From: an uncultured Synergistales bacterium | GTDB taxonomy: Bacteria > Synergistota > Synergistia > Synergistales > Aminobacteriaceae | DNA length: 54,097 nt | NCBI GenBank assembly: GCA_937897575.1 | Contig: CALCQG010000124.1 | Coordinates: 1-54,097, forward strand | Reading direction: 5' to 3' | Shown here: in pieces, positions 37,077 to 53,958 of the stretch | How positions within the stretch are numbered: position 1 is the stretch's first letter | Layout: each line of letters begins with the position of its first letter | Translations under genes and position numbers: made by a program | Notes under the pieces: model-generated | Seen by the model: the letters and a program-made list of their open reading frames with translations, nothing else | Database searches by the model: none | Told to the model about the DNA's origin: nothing

Positions 37077-37910
37077 TTACCGTCCGGCGTTCGGAAAGAA
37101 GAGCTGCTTGCCCAGAAGTTTGAAGTCGGCGATGGCCCTCTGGGTGGACGACGAGGTCAGCCAGTCCATATAGGTCAGGGCGAGGTCGTAGCGGATGTTG
37201 TCCCACTTGGCCGGGTTGACCGCTATGACGCTGTACTGGTTCTTCAGGGCATCGTCTCCCTCCACGACGATGACGAGGTCCGATTGCCCCTTGCGCGAGT
37301 CCTCGAACTTGATGAAGGTCCCCCGGTCCGTGAGCACGTACGCCCCGCGCTCGTCGCCCACCGTGAGCGTCTCGAGCATCCCTTGCCCCGTCTGGATGTA
37401 CCACTTCTCCTTGTCGGGCTGCTGCAGACCGGCCTTGTCCCAGAGGGCGAGCTCGGCCATATGGGTGCCGGACTTGTCCGCCCTGCTTGCGAAGGGCACA
37501 CCCGAGGCGGCGATCTTCTTCAGGGCCTCGAAGGCCGGAAGACCCCGGGTCTGTGCCGGGTCCTTCGACGGTCCGACGATGATGAAGTCGTTGTACATGA
37601 CCTGCCGCCTGTTCACCCCCGAGCCCTCGGCCACGAACGCCTCCTCCGATTTGGGGTCGTGCACGAGCACCACGTCCACGTCACCGTTCCGGCCATACTC
37701 CAGGGCCTTGCCCGTCCCGACGGCGACCCACTGAATCTCGATCCCCTTCTCCTCCAGGAGCTTCGGGGCAAGATAGTCGAGCAGCCCCGTGTTGTCCGTG
37801 CTTGTGGTGGTCGCCATACGAAGCACCTCGGCCGCCGACCCCTGCGAGCACCCTGCGGAGAGAAGCAGGATCACGACGAAAAAAACGCTCAATACCCTCC
37901 GAATTCTCAT
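37077..37910 (-). CDS. tupA: Tungstate ABC transporter substrate-binding protein
   Basis: MATTTSTDNTGLL (TTTS motif), VGTGKAL, VH, MYNDF, SRADKSGTH, TGQGM. Confidence 0.9.
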   Translation of the reverse strand: MRIRRVLSVFFVVILLLSAGCSQGSAAEVLRMATTTSTDNTGLLDYLAPKLLEEKGIEIQWVAVGTGKALEYGRNGDVDVVLVHDPKSEEAFVAEGSGVNRRQVMYNDFIIVGPSKDPAQTRGLPAFEALKKIAASGVPFASRADKSGTHMAELALWDKAGLQQPDKEKWYIQTGQGMLETLTVGDERGAYVLTDRGTFIKFEDSRKGQSDLVIVVEGDDALKNQYSVIAVNPAKWDNIRYDLALTYMDWLTSSSTQRAIADFKLLGKQLFFPNAGR

Positions 37911-38325: not shown

Positions 38326-38823
38326 ATGTCGACAAAAACCATGAAGGGTCTGGCCGAGGCCTTCGCCGGTGAATCCCAGGCCAACAGGAAGTACCTCGCC
38401 TTTGCGGCTCAGGCGGAAAAAGAGGGGTACCCTGCCGTAGCGAAGCTCTTCAAGACCATCGCCGAGGCCGAGACGCTCCATGCACTCGCCCATTTCAAGA
38501 CCATGGGCGGAGTGAAGACCACCGCGGAAAATCTGAAGGCCGCCCTTGAGGGCGAGACCTACGAATTCTCCGTGATGTATCCGGAGTTCATGAAATTCGC
38601 CGAGGAAGAGGGACAGAAGGCCGCCGCCGCCGGCTTCCACTTCGCCAATGAGGCGGAGAAGGTCCACGGAGCTCTGTACGAGAAGGCCATCGCCTCGCTC
38701 GAGAAGGGGAAGGACTCCACGTTCTACCTCTGCCCCGTGTGCGGGTATGTGGAGGAGGGGCACGCCCCGGATCTGTGCCCCATCTGCAAGGCGAAGAAAG
38801 AGGTTTTCAAGGTCGTGGCGTAA
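38326..38823 (+). CDS. Rubrerythrin
   Basis: AFAGESQA, ETLHA, GETYE, EKVH and C-terminal CPVC/CPIC. Confidence 0.93.
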   Translation: MSTKTMKGLAEAFAGESQANRKYLAFAAQAEKEGYPAVAKLFKTIAEAETLHALAHFKTMGGVKTTAENLKAALEGETYEFSVMYPEFMKFAEEEGQKAAAAGFHFANEAEKVHGALYEKAIASLEKGKDSTFYLCPVCGYVEEGHAPDLCPICKAKKEVFKVVA

Positions 38824-38836
38824 AGGAAAACGATCT

Positions 38837-38866
38837 CGGGGCCCGCGCTGCGGGCCCCGTTTTTTT
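38837..38866 (+). terminator. Rubrerythrin terminator
   Basis: GGGGCCCGC-GCT-GCGGGCCCC followed by T7. Confidence 0.85.
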
Positions 38867-38891
38867 CTCCTTCGTCCCCCCTGAAACCCTC

Positions 38892-38919
38892 TTGCTTTTC
38901 ATCGCAAAAAGCCTATAAT
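38892..38919 (+). promoter_or_regulatory. Putative promoter of the ATP-grasp/kamA cluster
   Basis: TTGCTT-16 nt-TATAAT. Confidence 0.6.
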
Positions 38920-39064
38920 CCGCACCAGCAAGGGCCCTCGTTCTTGCCGGGGCACGCTCGTCAGAAGGACCCCGGCTCGGAGTCCGGGCAGGAAGAACAC
39001 TGATCCTATGAAACACCGCGCCATGCGCGGTATCTTTTGCCCGAATTCGCTGGAGGGAGCCACG

Positions 39065-40177
39065 ATGAGCGAAGAGTACTGCCAAGAACCCGAAGTTCCG
39101 TTGCAACCCATTTCCAGGATATCCCTCGTCTACAACCTCAAAAAACCTGTCGAGTCCAACGAGCCCGACGACAAGTACGAGGAGTACGACCCCTTGTCCA
39201 CCGTCGAGGCTCTGGCAAAAACCGTCGCCTCCTTCGGCTTTCACGTCGCCCTCTGCGAACAGGATGATTCCTTTCACGCACGGCTGGAGAGCCAGGCTCC
39301 TCAGTTCGTCGTGAATATCGCGGAAGGACGGGGCACCGCCCGGGGACGGGAGGCTCAGGTTCCATGCCATCTCGAAAGCCTCGGCATCCCCTTCTGGGGC
39401 TCCGATTGCATCGCTCTCTCCGTCGCCATGGATAAATGGCTCACGGGGAACATTCTCTCCGGCGACGGGATTCCCGCCCCCCGCTCGGCCTCCTTCCGGA
39501 GCGGGGAGGACCTTCGTCGCCTCGAGACGCTGTTCGGCGAATGCGACCGATTCGTGGTGAAACCGCGTTACGAAGGGTCTTCCAAGGGAATTTTCTCCGA
39601 CTCCGTGGCCCATACGCCCCATGAGGCCGCGGAGAGGATACGGCGAGTCTGGGAGCGATACAAGCAGCCGGCTCTCGTCGAAGAGTACCTGCCCGGAGAG
39701 GAGATCACCGTCGGCATCGTGGGTTGCTCCCATCCGTCCGTTGTGGGAATGATGCGCATCCGCCCCGTCGAGCCCAGGGGCGAATTCCTGTACTCCCTCG
39801 AGGAAAAGAGGCAGTATCTGGAGCGCATCCGGTATGAAGGGCAGGACACCATCCCCTCGGGTCTGCGGGACCAGATAGCCCGGTTCGCCCTTCAGGCCTT
39901 CAGGGCGCTGGAGCTTCGGGATCTGGCGCGAGTCGACTTCCGTCTCGACGGAGACGGAGTTCCCAGGATCATAGACATCAACCCGCTGCCCGGGCTCTCG
40001 CCCGAGTACAGCGATCTTCCCATCCTCCACCGCCTGAACGGTGGAGCGTATCCGGCGCTGATCCGGTCCATCCTGGAGAGCGCGCTGGCCAGAAACGGGC
40101 TGGCAGCGCCCCGGACGGGAAACGACCCCGACATGTCATCACCGGAGCTCGTCGGAATAGGACTGTCCCAGCGTTGA
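39065..40177 (+). CDS. D-Ala-D-Ala-ligase-like ATP-grasp protein 1
   Basis: NIAEG, REAQVP, MDKWL, VKPRYEGSSKGI, EEYLPGEE, RVDFR, DINPLPGL. Confidence 0.85.
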   Translation: MSEEYCQEPEVPLQPISRISLVYNLKKPVESNEPDDKYEEYDPLSTVEALAKTVASFGFHVALCEQDDSFHARLESQAPQFVVNIAEGRGTARGREAQVPCHLESLGIPFWGSDCIALSVAMDKWLTGNILSGDGIPAPRSASFRSGEDLRRLETLFGECDRFVVKPRYEGSSKGIFSDSVAHTPHEAAERIRRVWERYKQPALVEEYLPGEEITVGIVGCSHPSVVGMMRIRPVEPRGEFLYSLEEKRQYLERIRYEGQDTIPSGLRDQIARFALQAFRALELRDLARVDFRLDGDGVPRIIDINPLPGLSPEYSDLPILHRLNGGAYPALIRSILESALARNGLAAPRTGNDPDMSSPELVGIGLSQR

Positions 40178-40314
40178 GTGCGATTCTCCAAGTTCTCTTG
40201 CAGTACCCCTCGTTCCAAACGGATTGGGTCCCTGTTCAACACGGTCTATAGGGACGGGGACAGACCGCCGGGGAGCGGGAGCCACCCGGCATCATAAAGG
40301 AGGCGAGTGACGAG

Positions 40315-40785
40315 ATGCGACGAACGGACCGCGAAGTATCAGACCGAAAGTGGCAAGAGCAGGTGTTGCACGACGCCACGGTGCTGGAGCTCGGCATGGT
40401 TGACCTGGAGGGGAAAGCGTACGTCGTGCCCATGAGCTTCGGCTACAAGGATGGGACGATCTACCTCCACGGGGCGTTTGAGGGGAAGAAGAAGGATTGT
40501 CTGGCGGCGAACCCCGCCGTCTGTTTTCAGGTCTGCATCACCGGCAAGGTCATCGCCAAACCGGGCGGCACGTCCTTCACCGTGGAGTACCGGAGCGTCA
40601 CGGGGTTCGGCACGGTGACGGACATCACCGATCTGGACGGAAAAAACAAGGCGCTGGAGGTCGTGGTGAACCACTACCACTTCCCCTATATTCCGATCGA
40701 CGAGTCGCGAAAGGTCTGGGTGGCGCGCCTAGACATCGAGCACATGACGGGCAAGGCCAACCCTCCCCCCGAGCTCATGTCGTGA
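40315..40785 (+). CDS. Pyridoxamine 5'-phosphate oxidase-like (NimA-type) flavin-binding protein
   Basis: MRRTDRE, YVVPMSF, YLHGA..G.K, YRSVTGFG, MTGK. Confidence 0.85.
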   Translation: MRRTDREVSDRKWQEQVLHDATVLELGMVDLEGKAYVVPMSFGYKDGTIYLHGAFEGKKKDCLAANPAVCFQVCITGKVIAKPGGTSFTVEYRSVTGFGTVTDITDLDGKNKALEVVVNHYHFPYIPIDESRKVWVARLDIEHMTGKANPPPELMS

Positions 40786-40979
40786 TCCGCACACCGAAGC
40801 TGTCGTCCGAGGATGGATGTTCGAGTGACAAAGCCCGGGGTTCGCTTCATAGGAATGCTCAGAAAAACTGACGATCACCTCGGCGACCTGAACGGCCGAG
40901 GTGATGGACCGCTCGTCCGGTTCGTCCTGCAGGGCGCGCTCATTCAAAACGGGTCCCTCTTTCCCCGGAGGGGACGCCG

Positions 40980-42020
40980 GTGACCATGTTTTTTTCTGCG
41001 GGAACCCCGAAAGGGACCGTCGTCGCCATCCCCGTGGCCCTGGAGCCCGATGCGAGGCCCGACGTGGCGGACGTCGCCGTGGCCCGCGACTTCGTCACCG
41101 AGGCACTGCGGCTGCTGGGGCACACCCCCGTCCCTCTGGACATCTCCCCCGACCTCCTGCGAGACCGCGAACGCCTGGATGCCCTGCTTCGTTCCACCGG
41201 GGCCGGCTTCGTCTTCAACCTCTTCGAGGGATTCGGCGACGACAGCGCCGCCGAGGCGGCGTTCTGCTCGGCCGTCGAGGTGTCGGGCATCCCGTACACG
41301 GGCAACCCGGCCCATGTCCTCGAGCTCTGCCGGTCGAAGGGGGACACGGCCCGCCTCCTGCGGAGCGCCGGCCTCCCCGTCCCCGACGGAGTGGCGCTCT
41401 TTCCAGGGTGGGAGAGGCGCGCTCTCGACGGCGTGGCGCTGCCCATCTTCGTGAAACCCCTGTGCGAGGACGGAAGCGTGGGCGTGCACCCCTTCTCCCT
41501 CGTCCGAAGAGCGGACGAACTGGACGGGACCCTTGCGCGCATGCTGGACCTCTTCCCTGAGGGCGTCTTGGTGCAGCCCTTTCTCCCGGGGCGGGAGTAC
41601 TCCGTCTCCTGCATCGGCAACGGGGCGTACCGCGCGGTGGGTGTCTCGGTCATCGATTACGACGCAGAGGGGGAAACCATCCCCTTCCGCGACTATGCGT
41701 CGAAGTGGGACCCCGCGTGCCCGCTCTACCCTCTCACCCCTGCCCCGGCCGGGGCGAAAGACGGTGAGAGGGCGTCGATGTTGGCCCTCCGCGCAGGCGA
41801 GGCCATCGGTTGCAGGGGCTATTTCAGGGTGGACCTCAGGGAGAAGGACGGAACGCTCTTCATCCTGGACGTCAACCCCAACCCCGACATGACCCCGGGC
41901 GGAGGGTTCATGCGGCAGTGCCGGGAGGGCGGCATCCCGGGAGAACGGGTGGTCGCCCATCTTCTGGAGCTGGCCCTCGAAGAGCACGGGAGAAGGAACA
42001 GCCGATGTCGAGCGTCCTGA
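40980..42020 (+). CDS. D-Ala-D-Ala-ligase-like ATP-grasp protein 2
   Basis: VFNLFEG, IPYTG, VKPLCEDGSVG, FLPGREY, YASKW, RVDLR, DVNPNP. Confidence 0.85.
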   Translation: MTMFFSAGTPKGTVVAIPVALEPDARPDVADVAVARDFVTEALRLLGHTPVPLDISPDLLRDRERLDALLRSTGAGFVFNLFEGFGDDSAAEAAFCSAVEVSGIPYTGNPAHVLELCRSKGDTARLLRSAGLPVPDGVALFPGWERRALDGVALPIFVKPLCEDGSVGVHPFSLVRRADELDGTLARMLDLFPEGVLVQPFLPGREYSVSCIGNGAYRAVGVSVIDYDAEGETIPFRDYASKWDPACPLYPLTPAPAGAKDGERASMLALRAGEAIGCRGYFRVDLREKDGTLFILDVNPNPDMTPGGGFMRQCREGGIPGERVVAHLLELALEEHGRRNSRCRAS

Positions 42021-42484
42021 TGGAGCAGTGCATGGCCGCGGCCTCCGCGACCGGAGCCTTCACCCCCGATGAACTGGACGTCCTCCGGGAGGTCCTGACG
42101 GAGTGGTCCCTCCACCCCGACGGGAACTACAGGCTGCTCACCGAGGAGCGCGACGGAGCGGCGGTCGCCTTCCTCATCTATGGGCCCACGCCCATGACGG
42201 CGTTCGCCTACGACCTCTACTGGATTGCCGTGGACCCGGCGCATCAGAAAAAGGGCCTCGGCGCGCACCTGGAACGAAGAATGTGCGCCCTTTTGCTGAA
42301 AGGGGCGAAGCGGGCCGTCCTCCGCGTGGAGACGGCAGGACGGGACGAGTACGCCGGACAGCGCTTCTTCTACCTGGCCTGCGGGTACACGGAGTGCGGG
42401 CGGATACCGAACTTCTATTCGGAGGGTGATGACCTTGTCTTCTACTGCAAAGAGATCGGCGAAGGAACCGAACAGGGGACCTGA
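42005..42484 (+). CDS. GNAT family N-acetyltransferase
   Basis: DLYWIAVDPAHQKKGLG, VET, FY...GY, NFY..GDD; ATG 42005 overlaps the upstream gene. Confidence 0.87.
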   Translation: MSSVLMEQCMAAASATGAFTPDELDVLREVLTEWSLHPDGNYRLLTEERDGAAVAFLIYGPTPMTAFAYDLYWIAVDPAHQKKGLGAHLERRMCALLLKGAKRAVLRVETAGRDEYAGQRFFYLACGYTECGRIPNFYSEGDDLVFYCKEIGEGTEQGT

Positions 42485-43835
42485 GGCGTCGAAGGACCTC
42501 CCGGAGGGCGAAAAGCCCCCCTCGTCGAGGACGAAGACGCCCCTTCTCCATGAACCCGGCAGGGCCGGATACATCCCCGCCCTCCGTTCCGCCGTCGGCG
42601 AAGAGCACTGGAACGATTGGCGCTGGCAGCTCCAGTCGAGAATAACGACGGCCGAGGAACTCGGGCGCGTCCTGCCTCTCTCCCGAAGCGAATCCGTCAC
42701 GCTGCGCAAGAGCCTGAACACGCTCCGCATGGCCATAACCCCCTACTATGCGTCCCTCATCGACGGAAAGGACCCTCAGTGTCCCATCCGGAAACAGGCC
42801 ATCCCGTCCCTCCAGGAGACGCTCATCGCTCCGTCGGACCTCCTGGACCCTCTCCACGAGGACGTGGACTCCCCCGTCCCCGGGCTGACGCACCGATACC
42901 CGGACCGATGCATCCTCCTCGTCACCGATCAGTGCGGCATGTACTGCCGGCATTGCACCAGGCGCCGGTTCGCCGGACAGAACGACCAGGCCAGATCTCC
43001 GGAGCAGATCGACGCCTGCATGGACTACATCGCCCGGACGCCGGAGATACGCGACGTCCTCGTCACCGGGGGCGACCCGCTGACCCTCTCCGACGACCGG
43101 CTGGAGGCCGTTCTCTCGCGGCTCCGGGCCATCCCGACGGTGGAGATCATTCGCATCGGCACCAGAATCCCCGTCGTGCTCCCCATGCGGATCACCGGCG
43201 AGCTCTGCGCCATGCTGAAAAAGTACCACCCCCTCTGGATCAACGTGCAGTTCAACCATCCGAAGGAGCTCACACCCGAAGCGGCCGGGGCATGCGCCAT
43301 GCTCGCCGACGCGGGGATCCCCCTCGGCAACCAGTCCGTCCTCCTGAAGGGGATCAACGACTGCCCATACATCTTCAGGGATCTCAACCGGAGGCTGCTC
43401 GGGATGCGGGTGCGCCCCTACTACATCTACCAGTGCGACCTCTCGAGGGGCATCGAGCACTTCCGCACGGCCATCGGCAAGGGCGTGGAGATCATCGAGT
43501 ACCTGAGGGGGCACACCTCCGGTCTGGCCGTCCCGACCTTTGTCGTCGACGCCCCCGGCGGCGGCGGAAAGATCCCCGTCATGCCGAACTACGTCCTGTC
43601 GAGCTCCGACCGGAAGACCGTCCTCCGGAACTTCGAGGGAGTCCTCTGCGTCTACTCGGAACCCGAGGACAACCGAAGCCGGTGCCTCGGGTCCTGCAAG
43701 GAGCTGTGCCGGCGGTCCGCCCCCGAGGACAGGGAGGGCATCCCGCGGCTCTTCGAGGGCAATGCCCTGTCCATCGAGCCGAAGGAGCTCCACAGAGACC
43801 GGCGCCGGACTAAATGGCGGCGGGACGGCGAGTGA
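42429..43835 (+). CDS. kamA: Lysine 2,3-aminomutase (radical SAM/PLP)
   Basis: WNDWRWQ, THRYPDR, CGMYCRHCTRRR, YQCD, VDAPGGGGKIP and a C-terminal Cys cluster. Start is uncertain (42426, 42429 or 42435). Confidence 0.93.
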   Translation: MTLSSTAKRSAKEPNRGPEASKDLPEGEKPPSSRTKTPLLHEPGRAGYIPALRSAVGEEHWNDWRWQLQSRITTAEELGRVLPLSRSESVTLRKSLNTLRMAITPYYASLIDGKDPQCPIRKQAIPSLQETLIAPSDLLDPLHEDVDSPVPGLTHRYPDRCILLVTDQCGMYCRHCTRRRFAGQNDQARSPEQIDACMDYIARTPEIRDVLVTGGDPLTLSDDRLEAVLSRLRAIPTVEIIRIGTRIPVVLPMRITGELCAMLKKYHPLWINVQFNHPKELTPEAAGACAMLADAGIPLGNQSVLLKGINDCPYIFRDLNRRLLGMRVRPYYIYQCDLSRGIEHFRTAIGKGVEIIEYLRGHTSGLAVPTFVVDAPGGGGKIPVMPNYVLSSSDRKTVLRNFEGVLCVYSEPEDNRSRCLGSCKELCRRSAPEDREGIPRLFEGNALSIEPKELHRDRRRTKWRRDGE

Positions 43836-43878: not shown

Positions 43879-43905
43879 AAACGGGGCGGCCAGACCGCCC
43901 CGTTT
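43879..43905. terminator. Bidirectional terminator-like hairpin
   Basis: AAACGGGGCGG/CCGCCCCGTTT between kamA and the MFS gene. Confidence 0.7.
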
Positions 43906-48639: not shown

Positions 48640-51600
48640 ATGAAACGTCTGCTTCTGATGGTTCTCGCGGCGCTGATTCTTTTCGGCGGGGTCGGAGGCG
48701 TGGAGGGCGCCGTTCAGGACGGCGAGTTCTCCGTCGCCACCTTCACCCCGCAGGGGATAGTCAAAGGAAAACCGGCCGTCACCGTCGTCTTCTCCCAGCC
48801 TGCGGCTGCGAAGGAGTCCGTGGGCAGGCCTGTCGCGGCGGACAAGCTCCCCCTGACCTTCTCGCCCCGCCTTCGCGGCGAGGGAAAGTGGACCGACGAG
48901 AAGACCTTCGTCTTCACCCCGTCAAGCGCGCTGCCCCAGGCGACCCTCTTCCGCTGCACCGTGTCCGACGCCCTCCGGGACCTTCAGGGGCGCCGGCTCT
49001 CGGGCAGACAGACCTTCGAGTTCTCCACCGAGGCGTTGAAGCTTCTCTCCGTCCGGCAGTCCGACTTCTCGAACGACCGGGCCACGCTCGACCTGAACTT
49101 CAACCTTCCCGTGACCCCGCAGCGTCTGAGGGGCTTCCTGACGATCCTAAACGAGCAGAAGGGGACGGTGGAGTACACGGTGTTCGGCAACGCGCCGGCG
49201 TCCATGGTCCAGGTCGCCTTCTATCCGTCGGACGCGAGCAAGTTTACGGCCGTCGTGGCCCCCGGGCTGACCAGCGACGCCGGCCCTCTCGGGACGACGA
49301 CCACCGGCCAGTTCCCCGTCACTGTCACGCGGCAGATCGAAATAACCAGCCTGTTCGCCCAGAGCCGCTCCGCCGATCAGGGGGTCATCCGGGTCTCCAC
49401 GTCCGTGGGGGCGGATCTGGCGTCGGTCCGGCAGTATGTCGAGCTCTCCCCGGCCGGCTCCTTCACCGTGGAGCCTGAGTACAACGGCTTCTCCATCGTG
49501 GGCGATTTCGCGCCGAGACAGCGGGTCACGGTGACCATCAAGAAGGGGCTGCCCTCCTCCTACGGGACGGCTCTGGCCCGGGACTTCACCCAGGCGGTGA
49601 TCTTCCCGGACATGGAGCCGGGCGTCACCTTCCCTACCGGCGGCTCCGTCCTGTCCCCGGCGGGCGATCTCAGGATCCCCATCGAGACGATCAACACCGA
49701 CGAGATATCCCTCAACCTCTGGCGGGTGTACGAGAACAACATCCCCGTGGCCATGTCCGGATACTCCGTCCCGAGGGAGCTCGCCCGGCTGGTGGCCTCC
49801 AAGAAGGCCTACCCTCAGGGCAAGCTGAACGAGGCGGCCCGGAGAGCCATCGACCTCCGCGAGTTCGCGGGCGACGCCAAGGGCGTCTTCCTGCTCACGG
49901 CCAACCTGGGTGATGGCGAGTACTGGAGCGAGGTGGAACAGCTCGTTGCCGTGACGGACCTCGGCGTCGTGGCCCGGGTCTTCCCCGACGGGATCACCGT
50001 CTGGGTCAACTCGATCCTCGGCATGAAGCCGGTGCCGGGAGCCACGGTCCGGGTCTACTCCAAGAGCAATCAGGTCCTGATCTCGGGCGAGACGGACGAG
50101 TCCGGTCTGTGGGCCTGGCGCGGCACGAGCGATTGGGACAGTCAGCTCACCCCGTGGCTCGTCACCGTCGAAAAACGGAACGATCTCTCCTTCCTCCGCC
50201 TGGAGAACGACCTCCTCGCCGACAACAGCTTCGACACGGGCGGTCGGGCCTGGAAGAAGGGGTACGACGCCATGCTCTTCGCGCCGAGGGGTGTGTTCCG
50301 CCCCGGCGAGACGGTGGACCTCTCGGCCATCGTCCGGAACGAAAAATGGATGCCCCCCGAGGCCTTCCCCCTGCTCTTCGTCGTCCGCTCCTCCATGGGG
50401 CGCGAGGTGGCCAGAGGCACGGCCATGCTCACGGCCGAGGGGATGGGCAGTTTCGCCCTTCCTCTGGCGGCCGCCGCACCCACGGGAAAGTACAGCGCCA
50501 CCGTGGAGCTTCCGGGCGGCGAGGTCCTCGGGCGGACGGAGTTCTTCGTCGAGGACTTTGTCGCGCCTCGCCTCGAGGTGAAGGCAACCTCGGACAGGGC
50601 GGCCCTGGCACCGGGCGAGGAGCTGACGGTGAACCTCTCCTCCCTGTACCTCTTTGGCGCGCCGGCCGCCGGGCTCCCCTTCGAGGGGGAGATCATGGCC
50701 AGGGCCATCCCCTTCCAGCATGAGAAGTGGCGGGCCTTCGTCTTCGGCGACAGCACGAAGACCTTCGAAACGGTATCCGAGCCCCTCGACGGCGGCACTC
50801 TGGACGGAGACGGCAAGGGTACCCTGTCCTACGAGCCTCCCGAGGGGTGGGCACCGCCCTCGGCCGTCCGTCTCACTGTCCTGACGAGGGTCATGGAGGA
50901 GAGCGGGCGGTGGGTCAACGCGTCCCTGAACATCCCCTTCAACCCCTACCCCGTCTACCTCGGGATTCAGTCGCCCGAGGGCGAGCGAAACACGGGCAAG
51001 GAGACGGCCGTCCGCGTGGCCGCCGTGACGCCCGAGGGGCAGCCCTCGGATCTGGAACGCGTCACCGCGTCCCTCTTCATGGTGCAGCGGCACTACAACC
51101 TGGTCCGGACGGGCAACCAGAGCCGGTATCAGGAGCAGAAGGAGTTCGTCCCCCAGACCGAGGAGGCCGTCAATCTGAAGGAGGGCGTCGGCACCTTCTC
51201 CTTCACGCCGAAGAGCCAGGGCGAATATCTGCTTCGGTTCACCGACGAGGCGTCGGGGAGCACGGCCTCCACGACCATGTTCGTCTGGGCCCCCTACGGA
51301 GCCCAGGAGAGCTCGGGCTCCTCTCTGCCGGACAGAGTGACCATAGCGTTGGACAAGGAGAAGTACGCCCCCGGCGACAAGGCCGCCGTGACGCTTCGCA
51401 GCCCCTTCCCGGGGAATCTGCTCATCACCGTGGAGACGGACCGGGAGCTCTTCCGGAGCGTCGTAACGCTGGACAAGGGCAGTGCGACCGTCGAGATCCC
51501 CGTGACCCAGGAGATGGTCCCCAACGGGTACGTCACCGCCTGGGTCGTCCGTCCCGTGGTGGCCGGCGAGCCCTGGGGCAGCCACCGGGCGATCGGCATC

Positions 51601-53958
51601 GCACCCATCTTCGTGGAGCAGGGACAGAAGAGGCTCTCCGTGGCTCTGTCGGCGCCTGAACGCACCCAGCCCGGCGAACCCCTCACCGTTCAGGGGACGA
51701 TCACCGACGGGTCCGGGGCACCCAGAGCAGGCGAAGTGGTCCTGTTCTTCGTGGATGAAGGCGTCCTCGCCCTCACGGGCTTCGCCACGCCCGACCCCTG
51801 GGAGTTCTTCATGGGCCGGAGGGCCCGAAGCGCCTCGGGCTACGACCTGTACGACAACCTTCTTCCCCTCGAGGGGCGGGACACGCCGCTCCTGAAGGCG
51901 GGCGGAGGCGCCGCCGCCATGGAGGCGGCCCTGCGGATGGGCATGTCGCCCATGGCCGCCCGGTCCTTCGTCATCCTCTCCATCGTCTCGGGACGTTTCA
52001 CCGCCGACGACAAGGGGCAGTTCTCCGCCACCCTCTCCATCCCCGAGTTCACGGGCAAGGGACGCCTCATGGCCGTCGCCGCCTCGAAGGACCTCTTCGG
52101 CAAGGGCGAGGCGCAGGTCACCATAGCCCGGGACGTCACGGCGGAGCTCTCCCTCCCGAGAGCCGTCTCGCCGGCGGACGCTTTTGAGGCGCCCCTGAAG
52201 CTCTTCTCGTCGTCCGACGAGGAGAGGCAGGTCACCGTGACCATTGCGGCGGACGGAGCCCTCGGCCTTTCGGGCGAGAAGACCTTCTCGGCCACCCTGC
52301 CGAAGCGGGGGGACAACGCCCTGTTCCAGGTCCCCTTCACCGCCGCCGGCGAAGCCGGGCGGGGAGCGGTGACCGTCACGACGGAGTGGAACGGCGGCCG
52401 CTCCGTGCAGACCCTCGACCTTCCCGTTCGGCCCGCCTACCCGAGAATCAGCCGCTCCGGATCGGGGACGGCGAAGGCGAACGCTCCCGCCACCGTCACC
52501 ATCCCGAGGGAGTGGTTCCCGGGGACGGAGGAGGGGCGCCTGGTCCTCTCGGGCCTTCCCTCGCTCCAGCTCCTCGGCGCAGTGTCCTTCCTGCGGCAGT
52601 ACCCTTACGGCTGCCTCGAGCAGACCGTCTCGGGCGCATGGCCGCTGCTCGTCCTTCCGGACATACTGGCCGACGTGGACCCCGAACTCGTGAACGAGGA
52701 CAGCCGTTCGGCCGCCCTTGCGACGAGGATTCGCCAGATATCGGCCATGCAGCTCTATGACGGTGGCTTCGCCTCCTGGCCCGGAAACGCCACCGCCTAT
52801 CCCTGGGGCTCCGTCTACGCCGCCCATCTCCTCGTGGAGGCGAAAAAGAGCGGCGCGGCCCTGTCCGACGACCTGGTGAACAACGCCCTCGGCTATCTGC
52901 GTCGCCTCCTGCCCCTGGCGCCCGAAGGCGACGGAGAGGCCGCCCTCTCGGAGAACCTGACGGTGAAGGCCTACGCCTCCTACGTCCTCGCCCTGGCCGG
53001 CGATGCACCCCTCGGCTGGATGGCCTACATCAAGGAGAACGATGCCCACCTCAGAAGCTCGGGGGCCATCTTCCTGGCCGGCGCCTACGCGCTGGCGGAG
53101 AACTCGCCCGAGCCGTTGAAGGCTCTGGGCACGGGCGCGCCCGGTCTTCAGGGCGGGGAGACGACCTTCGAGACGGCCTCCCGGACAAACGCCCTGAAGC
53201 TGCTCATGTGGACCGCCGTCGACCCCCTCTCCTCCGCTGCGGCACAGCTTGCCCAGGGGCTGATCGGCGAGGCGTCGGCGAACCGATGGAACACCACGCA
53301 GGACAACGCCATGGGCGTCCTGGCCCTCGGACGGTGGCTCGTCAAGACGAGGGATGCCCGAAAGCCCTTCACCGGCCGGCTGACCGACGGTGCGGGAAAG
53401 GATGTGGCGTCCTTCACCGACGAAAAGGCCGCCTCCGTGGAGCTCAGGAATCTGCCGGCGGGCGATCTGACCCTCACCATCGAGGGCGAGGGTTCGGCCT
53501 ACTACGCGTGGACCTCGTCGGGCGTTCCTCTGAAGGCACCCGCTCCGTCGAACAACGGCCTGACGGTCAAGCGGGCGTGGCAGGACACGAAGGGCAAGGC
53601 ACTGACGCCGGGGACACCCATTGCCCACGGCACCCGGGTTGAGGTCACGCTGACCGTCAGACCCGCCGCGCCCATGCGCAACATCGTGGTGGTGGACATG
53701 CTGCCGGGCGGCATGGAGATAGAGAATCCGCGGCTCACGGGGGGCGGGGACGACGAACCCTCCGGCGGCATCCGCTCCGAGATGCGGGACGACCGGCTCA
53801 TTCTCTTCATCGACTTCGCCGATGGCCCCGTGACCTACAAGTACCTCCTCCGGGCCGTGAGCAGGGGGACCTTCGTCCTTCCGCCCCTGGCCGGCGAGGG
53901 GATGTACGCCCCGGACATCGCCTCCGTGACCGCGACGGGCAAGATCGAGATCCGGTAG
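48640..53958 (+). CDS. Bacterial alpha-2-macroglobulin
   Basis: 1772 aa with a signal peptide, FRPGETV, VDEGVL, thioester PYGCLEQ (52612-52623), TQDNA, DMLPGGMEIEN and MYAP. Confidence 0.93.
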   Translation: MKRLLLMVLAALILFGGVGGVEGAVQDGEFSVATFTPQGIVKGKPAVTVVFSQPAAAKESVGRPVAADKLPLTFSPRLRGEGKWTDEKTFVFTPSSALPQATLFRCTVSDALRDLQGRRLSGRQTFEFSTEALKLLSVRQSDFSNDRATLDLNFNLPVTPQRLRGFLTILNEQKGTVEYTVFGNAPASMVQVAFYPSDASKFTAVVAPGLTSDAGPLGTTTTGQFPVTVTRQIEITSLFAQSRSADQGVIRVSTSVGADLASVRQYVELSPAGSFTVEPEYNGFSIVGDFAPRQRVTVTIKKGLPSSYGTALARDFTQAVIFPDMEPGVTFPTGGSVLSPAGDLRIPIETINTDEISLNLWRVYENNIPVAMSGYSVPRELARLVASKKAYPQGKLNEAARRAIDLREFAGDAKGVFLLTANLGDGEYWSEVEQLVAVTDLGVVARVFPDGITVWVNSILGMKPVPGATVRVYSKSNQVLISGETDESGLWAWRGTSDWDSQLTPWLVTVEKRNDLSFLRLENDLLADNSFDTGGRAWKKGYDAMLFAPRGVFRPGETVDLSAIVRNEKWMPPEAFPLLFVVRSSMGREVARGTAMLTAEGMGSFALPLAAAAPTGKYSATVELPGGEVLGRTEFFVEDFVAPRLEVKATSDRAALAPGEELTVNLSSLYLFGAPAAGLPFEGEIMARAIPFQHEKWRAFVFGDSTKTFETVSEPLDGGTLDGDGKGTLSYEPPEGWAPPSAVRLTVLTRVMEESGRWVNASLNIPFNPYPVYLGIQSPEGERNTGKETAVRVAAVTPEGQPSDLERVTASLFMVQRHYNLVRTGNQSRYQEQKEFVPQTEEAVNLKEGVGTFSFTPKSQGEYLLRFTDEASGSTASTTMFVWAPYGAQESSGSSLPDRVTIALDKEKYAPGDKAAVTLRSPFPGNLLITVETDRELFRSVVTLDKGSATVEIPVTQEMVPNGYVTAWVVRPVVAGEPWGSHRAIGIAPIFVEQGQKRLSVALSAPERTQPGEPLTVQGTITDGSGAPRAGEVVLFFVDEGVLALTGFATPDPWEFFMGRRARSASGYDLYDNLLPLEGRDTPLLKAGGGAAAMEAALRMGMSPMAARSFVILSIVSGRFTADDKGQFSATLSIPEFTGKGRLMAVAASKDLFGKGEAQVTIARDVTAELSLPRAVSPADAFEAPLKLFSSSDEERQVTVTIAADGALGLSGEKTFSATLPKRGDNALFQVPFTAAGEAGRGAVTVTTEWNGGRSVQTLDLPVRPAYPRISRSGSGTAKANAPATVTIPREWFPGTEEGRLVLSGLPSLQLLGAVSFLRQYPYGCLEQTVSGAWPLLVLPDILADVDPELVNEDSRSAALATRIRQISAMQLYDGGFASWPGNATAYPWGSVYAAHLLVEAKKSGAALSDDLVNNALGYLRRLLPLAPEGDGEAALSENLTVKAYASYVLALAGDAPLGWMAYIKENDAHLRSSGAIFLAGAYALAENSPEPLKALGTGAPGLQGGETTFETASRTNALKLLMWTAVDPLSSAAAQLAQGLIGEASANRWNTTQDNAMGVLALGRWLVKTRDARKPFTGRLTDGAGKDVASFTDEKAASVELRNLPAGDLTLTIEGEGSAYYAWTSSGVPLKAPAPSNNGLTVKRAWQDTKGKALTPGTPIAHGTRVEVTLTVRPAAPMRNIVVVDMLPGGMEIENPRLTGGGDDEPSGGIRSEMRDDRLILFIDFADGPVTYKYLLRAVSRGTFVLPPLAGEGMYAPDIASVTATGKIEIR

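Follow-up and report, generated by a model that had tools for sequence, protein, structure and literature searches.

What does a bacterium make of β-lysine when the gene for its lysine 2,3-aminomutase (KamA) stands beside genes for two relatives of D-alanine–D-alanine ligase (Ddl) and a GNAT acetyltransferase? The question is raised by positions 39065–43835 of the 54,097-nucleotide contig CALCQG010000124.1 of an uncultured Synergistales bacterium, the whole of which we call the window. We find this cassette to be real, conserved and apparently undescribed, and built from known kinds of enzyme; no description of it was found in the open-access literature searched, subscription journals being mostly outside that scope. 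We give about even chances to the reading that it builds a small cationic β-lysyl amide, most likely with a polyamine or a lysine-type amine, that is capped by the GNAT. All five open reading frames (ORFs) that a sequence-only reading had described as a co-oriented run are present on the + strand in that order, here listed with two flanking elements (S-adenosylmethionine, SAM; pyridoxal 5′-phosphate, PLP; major facilitator superfamily, MFS):

39065..40177 (+): ligase 1, a Ddl-fold ATP-grasp enzyme (PF07478; NF002378 126 bits against a cut-off of 243)
40315..40785 (+): pyridoxamine-5′-phosphate-oxidase-like (Nim-like) flavin-binding protein (PF12900)
40980..42020 (+): ligase 2, a second Ddl-fold ATP-grasp enzyme (PF07478; NF002378 94 bits against 243)
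42005..42484 (+): small RimI-fold GNAT of the PDB 2R7H family (PF13508/PF00583)
42426..43835 (+): KamA/AblA-type lysine 2,3-aminomutase, radical SAM and PLP (TIGR03820, 577.6 bits against 525.4)
38892..38919 (+): likely sigma-70-type promoter, TTGCTT-16-TATAAT (from sequence; kept in relatives)
43879..43905 (no strand assigned): hairpin, possible bidirectional terminator between kamA and a convergent MFS gene (fold z −3.4)

By its profile scores KamA is a member of the lysine 2,3-aminomutase family, with a predicted activity of converting L-lysine to β-lysine. It exceeds the cut-off of the lysine model TIGR03820 and falls under those of the glutamate (TIGR04368, 483.7 versus 650 bits), arginine (TIGR04468, 397.7 versus 600) and EpmB (TIGR03821, 228.5 versus 369.3) models. 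The protein aligns with the C. subterminale lysine 2,3-aminomutase (2A5H) over 400 residues at E 7e-169 and has a CxxxCxxC motif at 170–177. The two motifs singled out by the sequence-only reading, YQCD (335–338) and VVDAPGGGGK (373–382), are present, and both are identical in 2A5H. The PLP lysine motif is also present, and we take the two aspartates to bind the lysine side chain.

Automatic annotation names both ligases ‘D-alanine–D-alanine ligase’, and this name, the Pfam match and the Ddl fold speak for true D-Ala-D-Ala (or D-Ala-D-X) cell-wall ligases. The structural likeness is close: a predicted model of ligase 1 (predicted local distance difference test 92) has DdlA as its best fold match (Z 31.5, root-mean-square deviation 2.5, 301 residues aligned), and the Atlas model of ligase 2 (predicted template-modelling score 0.89) has a Ddl-type ATP-grasp fold. 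The sequence-only reading had nevertheless set the pair outside true Ddl, and tree, scores and active-site residues all bear this out. Both proteins score far under every Ddl and Van cut-off, at less than 55% of that of NF002378, and lack the N-terminal PF01820 match. The canonical ddl of the same genome is on contig C5 (NF002378, 307 bits against 243), and the cassette does not lie within a cell-wall cluster. A quick maximum-likelihood tree of 62 rows, including E. coli DdlA and DdlB, VanB, other plasmid and Synergistota Ddls, and RimK, places both ligases, which share 27% identity, in one 41-row clade apart from Ddl (SH-aLRT, the Shimodaira–Hasegawa-like approximate likelihood-ratio test, 98, without bootstrap). 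With His63, Glu68, Tyr216 and Leu282 also replaced (below), a cell-wall role is largely refuted already and we consider it extremely improbable. Co-folding of ligase 1 with ligase 2 gave a score of 0.00, without control runs, and bears neither way on whether they pair.

Active-site residues were mapped onto E. coli DdlB by sequence alignment, using close sets of 114 ligase-1 and 110 ligase-2 relatives and diverse sets of 27 ligase-1 domains and 135 ligase-2-type domains, some third-subtype halves being included among the latter. The ATP/Mg and oxyanion residues (K97, K144, E187, K215, R255, D257 and N272 in DdlB) are kept almost without exception in both ligase families and, with these in place, both ligases look catalytically live. 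In DdlB, the first D-Ala and its phosphate are held by Glu15, Gly276, Arg255, Lys215 and Ser150 (PMC5717164). The D-Ala pocket residues His63/Glu68/Tyr216/Leu282 are E/R/R/D in ligase 1 and E/A/W/G in ligase 2. We assume that His63 lines the pocket for the D-Ala methyl group and that Leu282 belongs to the acceptor pocket. Because the β-amine would sit in the methyl pocket, a Glu in place of His63 would be a natural anchor, and could hold a β-amino acid.

This Glu, part of an N-x-x-E-G motif, occurs in all close relatives of either ligase (114/114 and 110/110), in 24 of 27 and 112 of 135 diverse domains under the strict pattern, and in no canonical Ddl. By these alignments it is a better clade marker than D-x-N, which the sequence-only reading had put forward. 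Both ligases of this locus do read D-x-N (D304-I-N306 in ligase 1, D297-V-N299 in ligase 2), but as a family signature it fails: E takes the place of D in 26 of the 27 diverse ligase-1 domains and in 85 of the 135 ligase-2-type domains, and the D, found in 114/114 close ligase-1 relatives, is a local trait. The pockets of both ligases hold fixed acidic residues. Ligase 1 has E87 (114/114), D42 (113/114 close and 27/27 diverse) and, at the position of Ddl Leu282, D317 (114/114 and 27/27); it also fixes E40 and R95 and keeps R289 and G310. Ligase 2 has E83 (110/110) and, in place of Gly276, D303 (103/110), with W243, N301 and G309 fixed. In the GNAT, E23, D70, E109 and D142 are kept in 25 of 25 rows. 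The acidic pockets of the three enzymes point to cationic substrates with several amines.

We surveyed 268 Synergistota genomes, counting ligase 1 at E ≤ 1e-30. Ligase 1 is present in 69 genomes and the GNAT in 65, which all belong to those 69; 75 genomes have a KamA-family gene. A kamA gene accompanies ligase 1 in 63 of the 69 genomes, against 12 of the 199 that lack the cassette; because kin genomes do not count independently, the association looks statistically stronger than it is. The linkage noticed in the window is thus conserved across Synergistota genomes, and it has hardened into fusions. It does not extend to kamA as a fixed operon member, as the sequence-only reading had supposed: the gene is directly behind the GNAT gene in only 34 of the 69 cassette genomes, and coordinates put it 3.5–6 kb from ligase 1 in 7 genomes and farther off or on another contig in 22. 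The fixed core is ligase1–ligase2–GNAT, with kamA as a near-obligate partner whose adjacency is not required.

Such separation would suit a trio that acts on some other diamino acid or amine, with kamA merely a frequent neighbour: of the 69 genomes with ligase 1, 6 gave no kamA match, and 22 of the 63 that have the gene carry it unlinked or on a different contig. Also in keeping is a Thioflavicoccus plasmid on which a related ligase shares an operon with genes for diaminobutyrate and diaminopropionate, kamA lying on the opposite strand. We regard this explanation as improbable, because kamA tracks the ligases even when unlinked (63/69 versus 12/199) and overlaps the GNAT gene in 34 genomes and a lone ligase gene on a viral contig. 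β-Lysine is, in our judgement, probably a substrate of the ligases. Among 20 kamA loci examined, unlinked copies are often beside an ArgE/DapE-like M20 enzyme and a sodium:solute symporter, or NhaC-type transporters; kamA, the M20 enzyme and the symporter stand in a row at L195, L196, L197, L200, L205, L206 and L211, an arrangement also seen in genomes without the ligases.

When 1.84 billion representatives were searched with a profile, 4694 proteins reached E ≤ 1e-30, possibly with other Ddl-like enzymes among them. Of the best 150 of these, 143 were new, and fusions were counted in those 143: 17 join ligase 1 to ligase 2, ligase 2 is fused to a GNAT of this family in 8 and to one of a second type in 8, and 12 have a third Ddl-like subtype ahead of ligase 1 (P0248, P0256, P0261, P0270, P0284, P0285, P0290, P0299, P0307, P0325, P0338 and P0361). 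Two further ligase2–GNAT fusions came from a separate search. Ten proteins considered as ligase2–ligase1 fusions were rejected, their front domain being the third Ddl-like subtype. One protein with the second GNAT type was compared with the PDB and is weakly like aminoglycoside and spermidine acetyltransferases (E 5e-11 to 5e-7). Breadth beyond the Synergistota is indicated by protein names, these fusions and Atlas clusters; look-alike clusters, with automatic labels and few members, are found in the Omnitrophota, Chloroflexota, Gemmatimonadota, Planctomycetota, Acidobacteriota, Myxococcota and archaea.

The association of ligase and aminomutase recurs on a viral contig (L244:3181-5302), where a gene of the ligase-1 clade overlaps kamA close to a gene for a T4-like major head protein; neither ligase 2 nor the GNAT was matched within the 11 kb examined, so that a phage would here carry half of the cassette. 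In the viral sequences searched there is no ligase 2 relative, and a ligase or GNAT match occurs at 0 of 16 viral kamA loci. The matches in phage records were all weak and at the level of Ddl; on plasmids GNAT relatives stand alone, with no ligase 2.

The GNAT, of 159 residues, matches 2R7H over the whole domain (E 4.9e-46). This is the sole solved structure in its family and is labelled ‘Putative D-alanine N-acetyltransferase of GNAT family’. We believe 2R7H to be a Desulfovibrio structural-genomics target; no functional paper on it or on its locus tags was found in the literature searched, and its D-alanine label probably echoes neighbouring Ddl-like genes. The AblB model TIGR03827 (266 positions) has no match in the GNAT or elsewhere in this genome, and the nearest named family is the protein acetylase RimI (31 bits, under a cut-off of 86). 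By these comparisons the GNAT is not AblB.

A GNAT could still do the work of AblB as a non-orthologous replacement, making N-ε-acetyl-β-lysine first, with the ligases turning that or β-lysine into a neutral or zwitterionic compatible solute of peptide type. AblB is indeed missing from the five genomes tested, so another acetylase could stand in; OpuAC adjoins 3 cassettes and MscS is within a few kilobases of 5, and in ‘Ca. Methanoperedens’ kamA-ablB is beside an MscS-like gene (PMC11337218). The GNAT, however, tracks ligase 2 and not kamA: ligase 1 is there in every one of the 65 genomes with the GNAT, 12 genomes have kamA but neither of these two, and the GNAT fusions are to ligase 2. The protein is also much shorter than the AblB model, which it does not match, and the acidic pockets would suit free amines better than an acetylated donor. 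We therefore hold an osmolyte to be unlikely.

β-Lysine has three textbook uses: lysine fermentation (kamDE, kdd), the osmolyte N-ε-acetyl-β-lysine (AblA/AblB) and modification of elongation factor P (EF-P). The sequence-only reading saw no kamDE, kdd, efp or epmA in the window, and the wider search did not find these outlets either. Full-length KamD (PF09043) is matched in 0 of 268 genomes, this one included, in a search in which no control genome rang; kdd, kce and kal were not searched for. Partial PF09043 matches (positions 145–505 of 508, about 150 bits) occur in 14 of the 268, not including this genome, and we take them to be the related ornithine aminomutase. AblB (TIGR03827) is absent at cut-off from the five genomes tested, the control having rung in 6 of 14 genomes, 2 of them over the cut-off, and EpmA (TIGR00462) has no match over cut-off in the five genomes tested. 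EF-P was rejected as the target of β-lysylation because its modified position is Arg in every one of 15 cassette genomes and in 14 of 15 without the cassette (29 of 30; L309 (G000:C50) and 28 further loci). These results leave β-lysine without a known outlet in this genome.

The loss of EF-P as a target also weakens the idea that the ligases, in the manner of RimK and LysX with proteins, load β-lysine onto a macromolecule (a protein, a lipid or part of the cell wall), with the GNAT acetylating the adduct. Protein-modifying ATP-grasp enzymes do share the fold of the ligase 1 model (ArgX/LysX Z 23.5–23.7, RimK Z 22.4), and RimI, the nearest named relative of the GNAT despite its sub-threshold score, acetylates proteins. 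The fold is, however, far closer to the small-molecule Ddl enzymes (Z 28–31), no carrier or target gene recurs beside the 39 cassette loci, and ligase2–GNAT fusions are also found in archaeal clusters, which speaks against peptidoglycan. A macromolecular target consequently seems to us distinctly unlikely.

For the β-lysyl amide we envisage four steps. KamA, placed by its family among the lysine 2,3-aminomutases, would convert L-lysine to β-lysine. Ligase 1 would activate the β-lysine carboxylate as an acyl phosphate and join it to a cationic amine; acyl-phosphate chemistry is to be expected in the ligases because they share the fold and the ATP, Mg and oxyanion residues of Ddl. In this step the Glu at Ddl His63 would hold the β-amine and D42 the side-chain amine, and D317 would select for a cationic acceptor. 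Ligase 2 would then make a second amide in a pocket that may have been opened by the change of Leu282 to Gly and made acidic by that of Gly276 to Asp. Finally, the GNAT would acetylate a terminal amine, neutralising or capping the product, and an acetylpolyamine amidohydrolase encoded beside a few cassettes could undo the acetylation. Two of 39 cassette loci have this GNAT-deacetylase neighbour (one at L176:8514-10286) and a third has a remnant of it; its best matches are acetylpolyamine amidohydrolases (E 3e-70). In 1 of 39, speD is directly behind the GNAT gene. The weak likeness of the second fused GNAT type to spermidine acetyltransferases, and the presence of speE in all near-complete cassette genomes (below), point the same way. 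Spermidine or a similar polyamine as the acceptor is possible but less likely than not. It is possible, if doubtful, that many anaerobic bacteria and archaea possess in this cassette a route to amide polyamines of the β-lysyl-spermidine type that is independent of tRNA and of nonribosomal peptide synthetases, has its own cycle of acetylation and deacetylation, and is in part carried by a phage.

Several points weigh against the amide. What we observed are family assignments, residue changes and genomic ties, from which we infer the product and the chemistry, and the pocket roles of His63, Val18 and Leu282 are our own assumption, mapped by alignment only. Polyamine neighbours are rare, as the counts for the amidohydrolase (2/39) and speD (1/39) show; this genome has no amidohydrolase match; and osmotic neighbours are as common as polyamine ones (OpuAC 3 genomes, MscS 5). 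kamA is non-adjacent in 29 of 63 genomes and unmatched in 6 ligase-1 genomes, two of which are more than 90% complete. In several genomes its operon is a different one, shared with an M20 deacylase plus a sodium symporter or with an NhaC-type transporter, and there it may serve some other purpose. Among 184 near-complete genomes, speE is present in 49 of 49 with the cassette, and the cassette in 0 of 20 without speE; this co-occurrence says little because speE is found in 164 of the 184. A cassette that substitutes for spermidine synthesis was rejected, since cassette genomes keep speE.

Several known systems come close to the proposed route. The ligases share with DdlA, DdlB, VanA and VanB their fold and their ATP, Mg and oxyanion residues, but form a separate clade in which both have His63 changed to Glu and other pocket residues are replaced, several by acids. 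In pyrrolysine synthesis the radical-SAM enzyme PylB rearranges lysine and the ATP-grasp enzyme PylC (4FFL, which the ligase 1 model matches at Z 18.2) joins the product to another amine. The cassette follows this outline, a radical-SAM lysine rearrangement feeding an ATP-grasp ligase, but KamA is a PLP-dependent aminomutase, there are two ligases and a GNAT, and pylD, pylS and pylT were not seen in the neighbourhoods, although no dedicated search was made for them. The β-arginine branch of blasticidin S synthesis likewise has an ATP-grasp ligase that takes a β-amino acid from a 2,3-aminomutase. Here too a KamA-family 2,3-aminomutase would feed a β-amino acid to an amide ligase; the differences are that this KamA is of the lysine type (TIGR04468 not reached), that no nucleoside or secondary-metabolite genes accompany it, and that the cassette is compact and spread across anaerobes.

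As in AblA/AblB (PMC11337218 and PMC3543383), a TIGR03820-family aminomutase adjoins an acetyltransferase, but the cassette GNAT is smaller, belongs to a different family and travels with ligase 2, and two ATP-grasp ligases are added. EpmA/EpmB also uses aminomutase-made β-lysine as acyl donor (PMC6544042), whereas in this genome EpmA, a lysyl-tRNA synthetase paralogue, was not found, KamA is not of the EpmB type and EF-P has Arg at the site. The cassette belongs to none of AblAB, lysine fermentation, EpmAB and Ddl/Van; from each of them it departs in a defining feature. New here are the phylum-wide counts, including those with kamA unlinked, the His63-to-Glu marker, the exclusion of EF-P and KamD, the viral ligase–kamA pair and the link to 2R7H. 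In about a quarter of Synergistota genomes (69/268), and in clusters from many other phyla, the ligases are misnamed ‘D-alanine–D-alanine ligase’; with the His63-to-Glu marker, annotators can tell the clade apart from the ligases of cell-wall synthesis and vancomycin resistance. With none of its three textbook outlets found here, β-lysine would have a fourth use in the cassette, one that would point to an undescribed metabolite of anaerobic cells.

The flavin-binding gene, counted with the cassette by the sequence-only reading, is lacking from all 37 related loci (18 + 19) and is therefore a local insertion that lies outside it. In the 19 cassette loci, ligase 1 and ligase 2 adjoin with no flavin gene between them. 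A paralogue (37%) is on contig C171 of the same genome. The junctions of the locus, those of the flavin gene included, are spanned by contigs from other public runs (X6 record 17, 38700–43439; X8 record 26, 39865–41214), so the gene arrangement is not an assembly artefact. A genome-collection search with one protein as query found the close relatives among Synergistota metagenome-assembled genomes (Aminivibrio, Aminobacteriaceae).

The last three genes overlap, as had been noted, by 16 nucleotides between ligase 2 and GNAT and by 50–59 between GNAT and kamA; the only in-frame KamA starts ahead of the conserved core are 42426, 42429 and 42435, all within the GNAT gene. The boundaries proposed by the sequence-only reading hold in part. 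A promoter is supported by the relatives, 13 of whose 20 aligned upstream regions keep this arrangement, but a consensus scan made no call. Behind kamA there is an 11-bp hairpin at 43879–43905, matched by 1 of 200 shuffles; it lacks a long U run and faces the convergent MFS gene, and a scan for intrinsic terminators called none there. The gene upstream of the cassette is ended by a rubrerythrin terminator at 38837–38859. For a leader RNA, an Rfam scan gave no match and folding was no better than that of shuffles (z −1.1). The leader of this window does not align with those of relatives beyond the promoter; a short pattern drawn from it matched this genome alone among the 268, and its 119 metagenomic loci were chance-like, none with cassette genes. 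A different leader, of about 100 nucleotides, is conserved ahead of ligase 1 in four genomes of one family (L041, L042, L044 and L045).

Variants of the ligase genes were also seen elsewhere. At L178:5942-8389 (G256), ligase 2 is split by an opposite-strand ORF of 410 codons that recurs beside both kamA copies there and looks like an insertion sequence. A 641-residue protein from a basal Synergistota family (L274:660-2585, G001) combines a methyltransferase-like domain with a ligase from this non-Ddl clade in one fused chain. The Thioflavicoccus mobilis plasmid (L050:5659-11140) carries diaminobutyrate transaminase, SbnA, SbnB-like and non-Ddl-clade ligase genes in one run, with kamA convergent. 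In the window itself, a molybdenum/tungsten riboswitch (RF01055, 37995–38117, − strand, 68.6 bits, over the cut-off) lies upstream of a tupA-like gene for a tungstate-binding protein (37077–37910), and a 1772-residue ORF at 48640–53958 (+) has a translation that reads like a bacterial α-2-macroglobulin.

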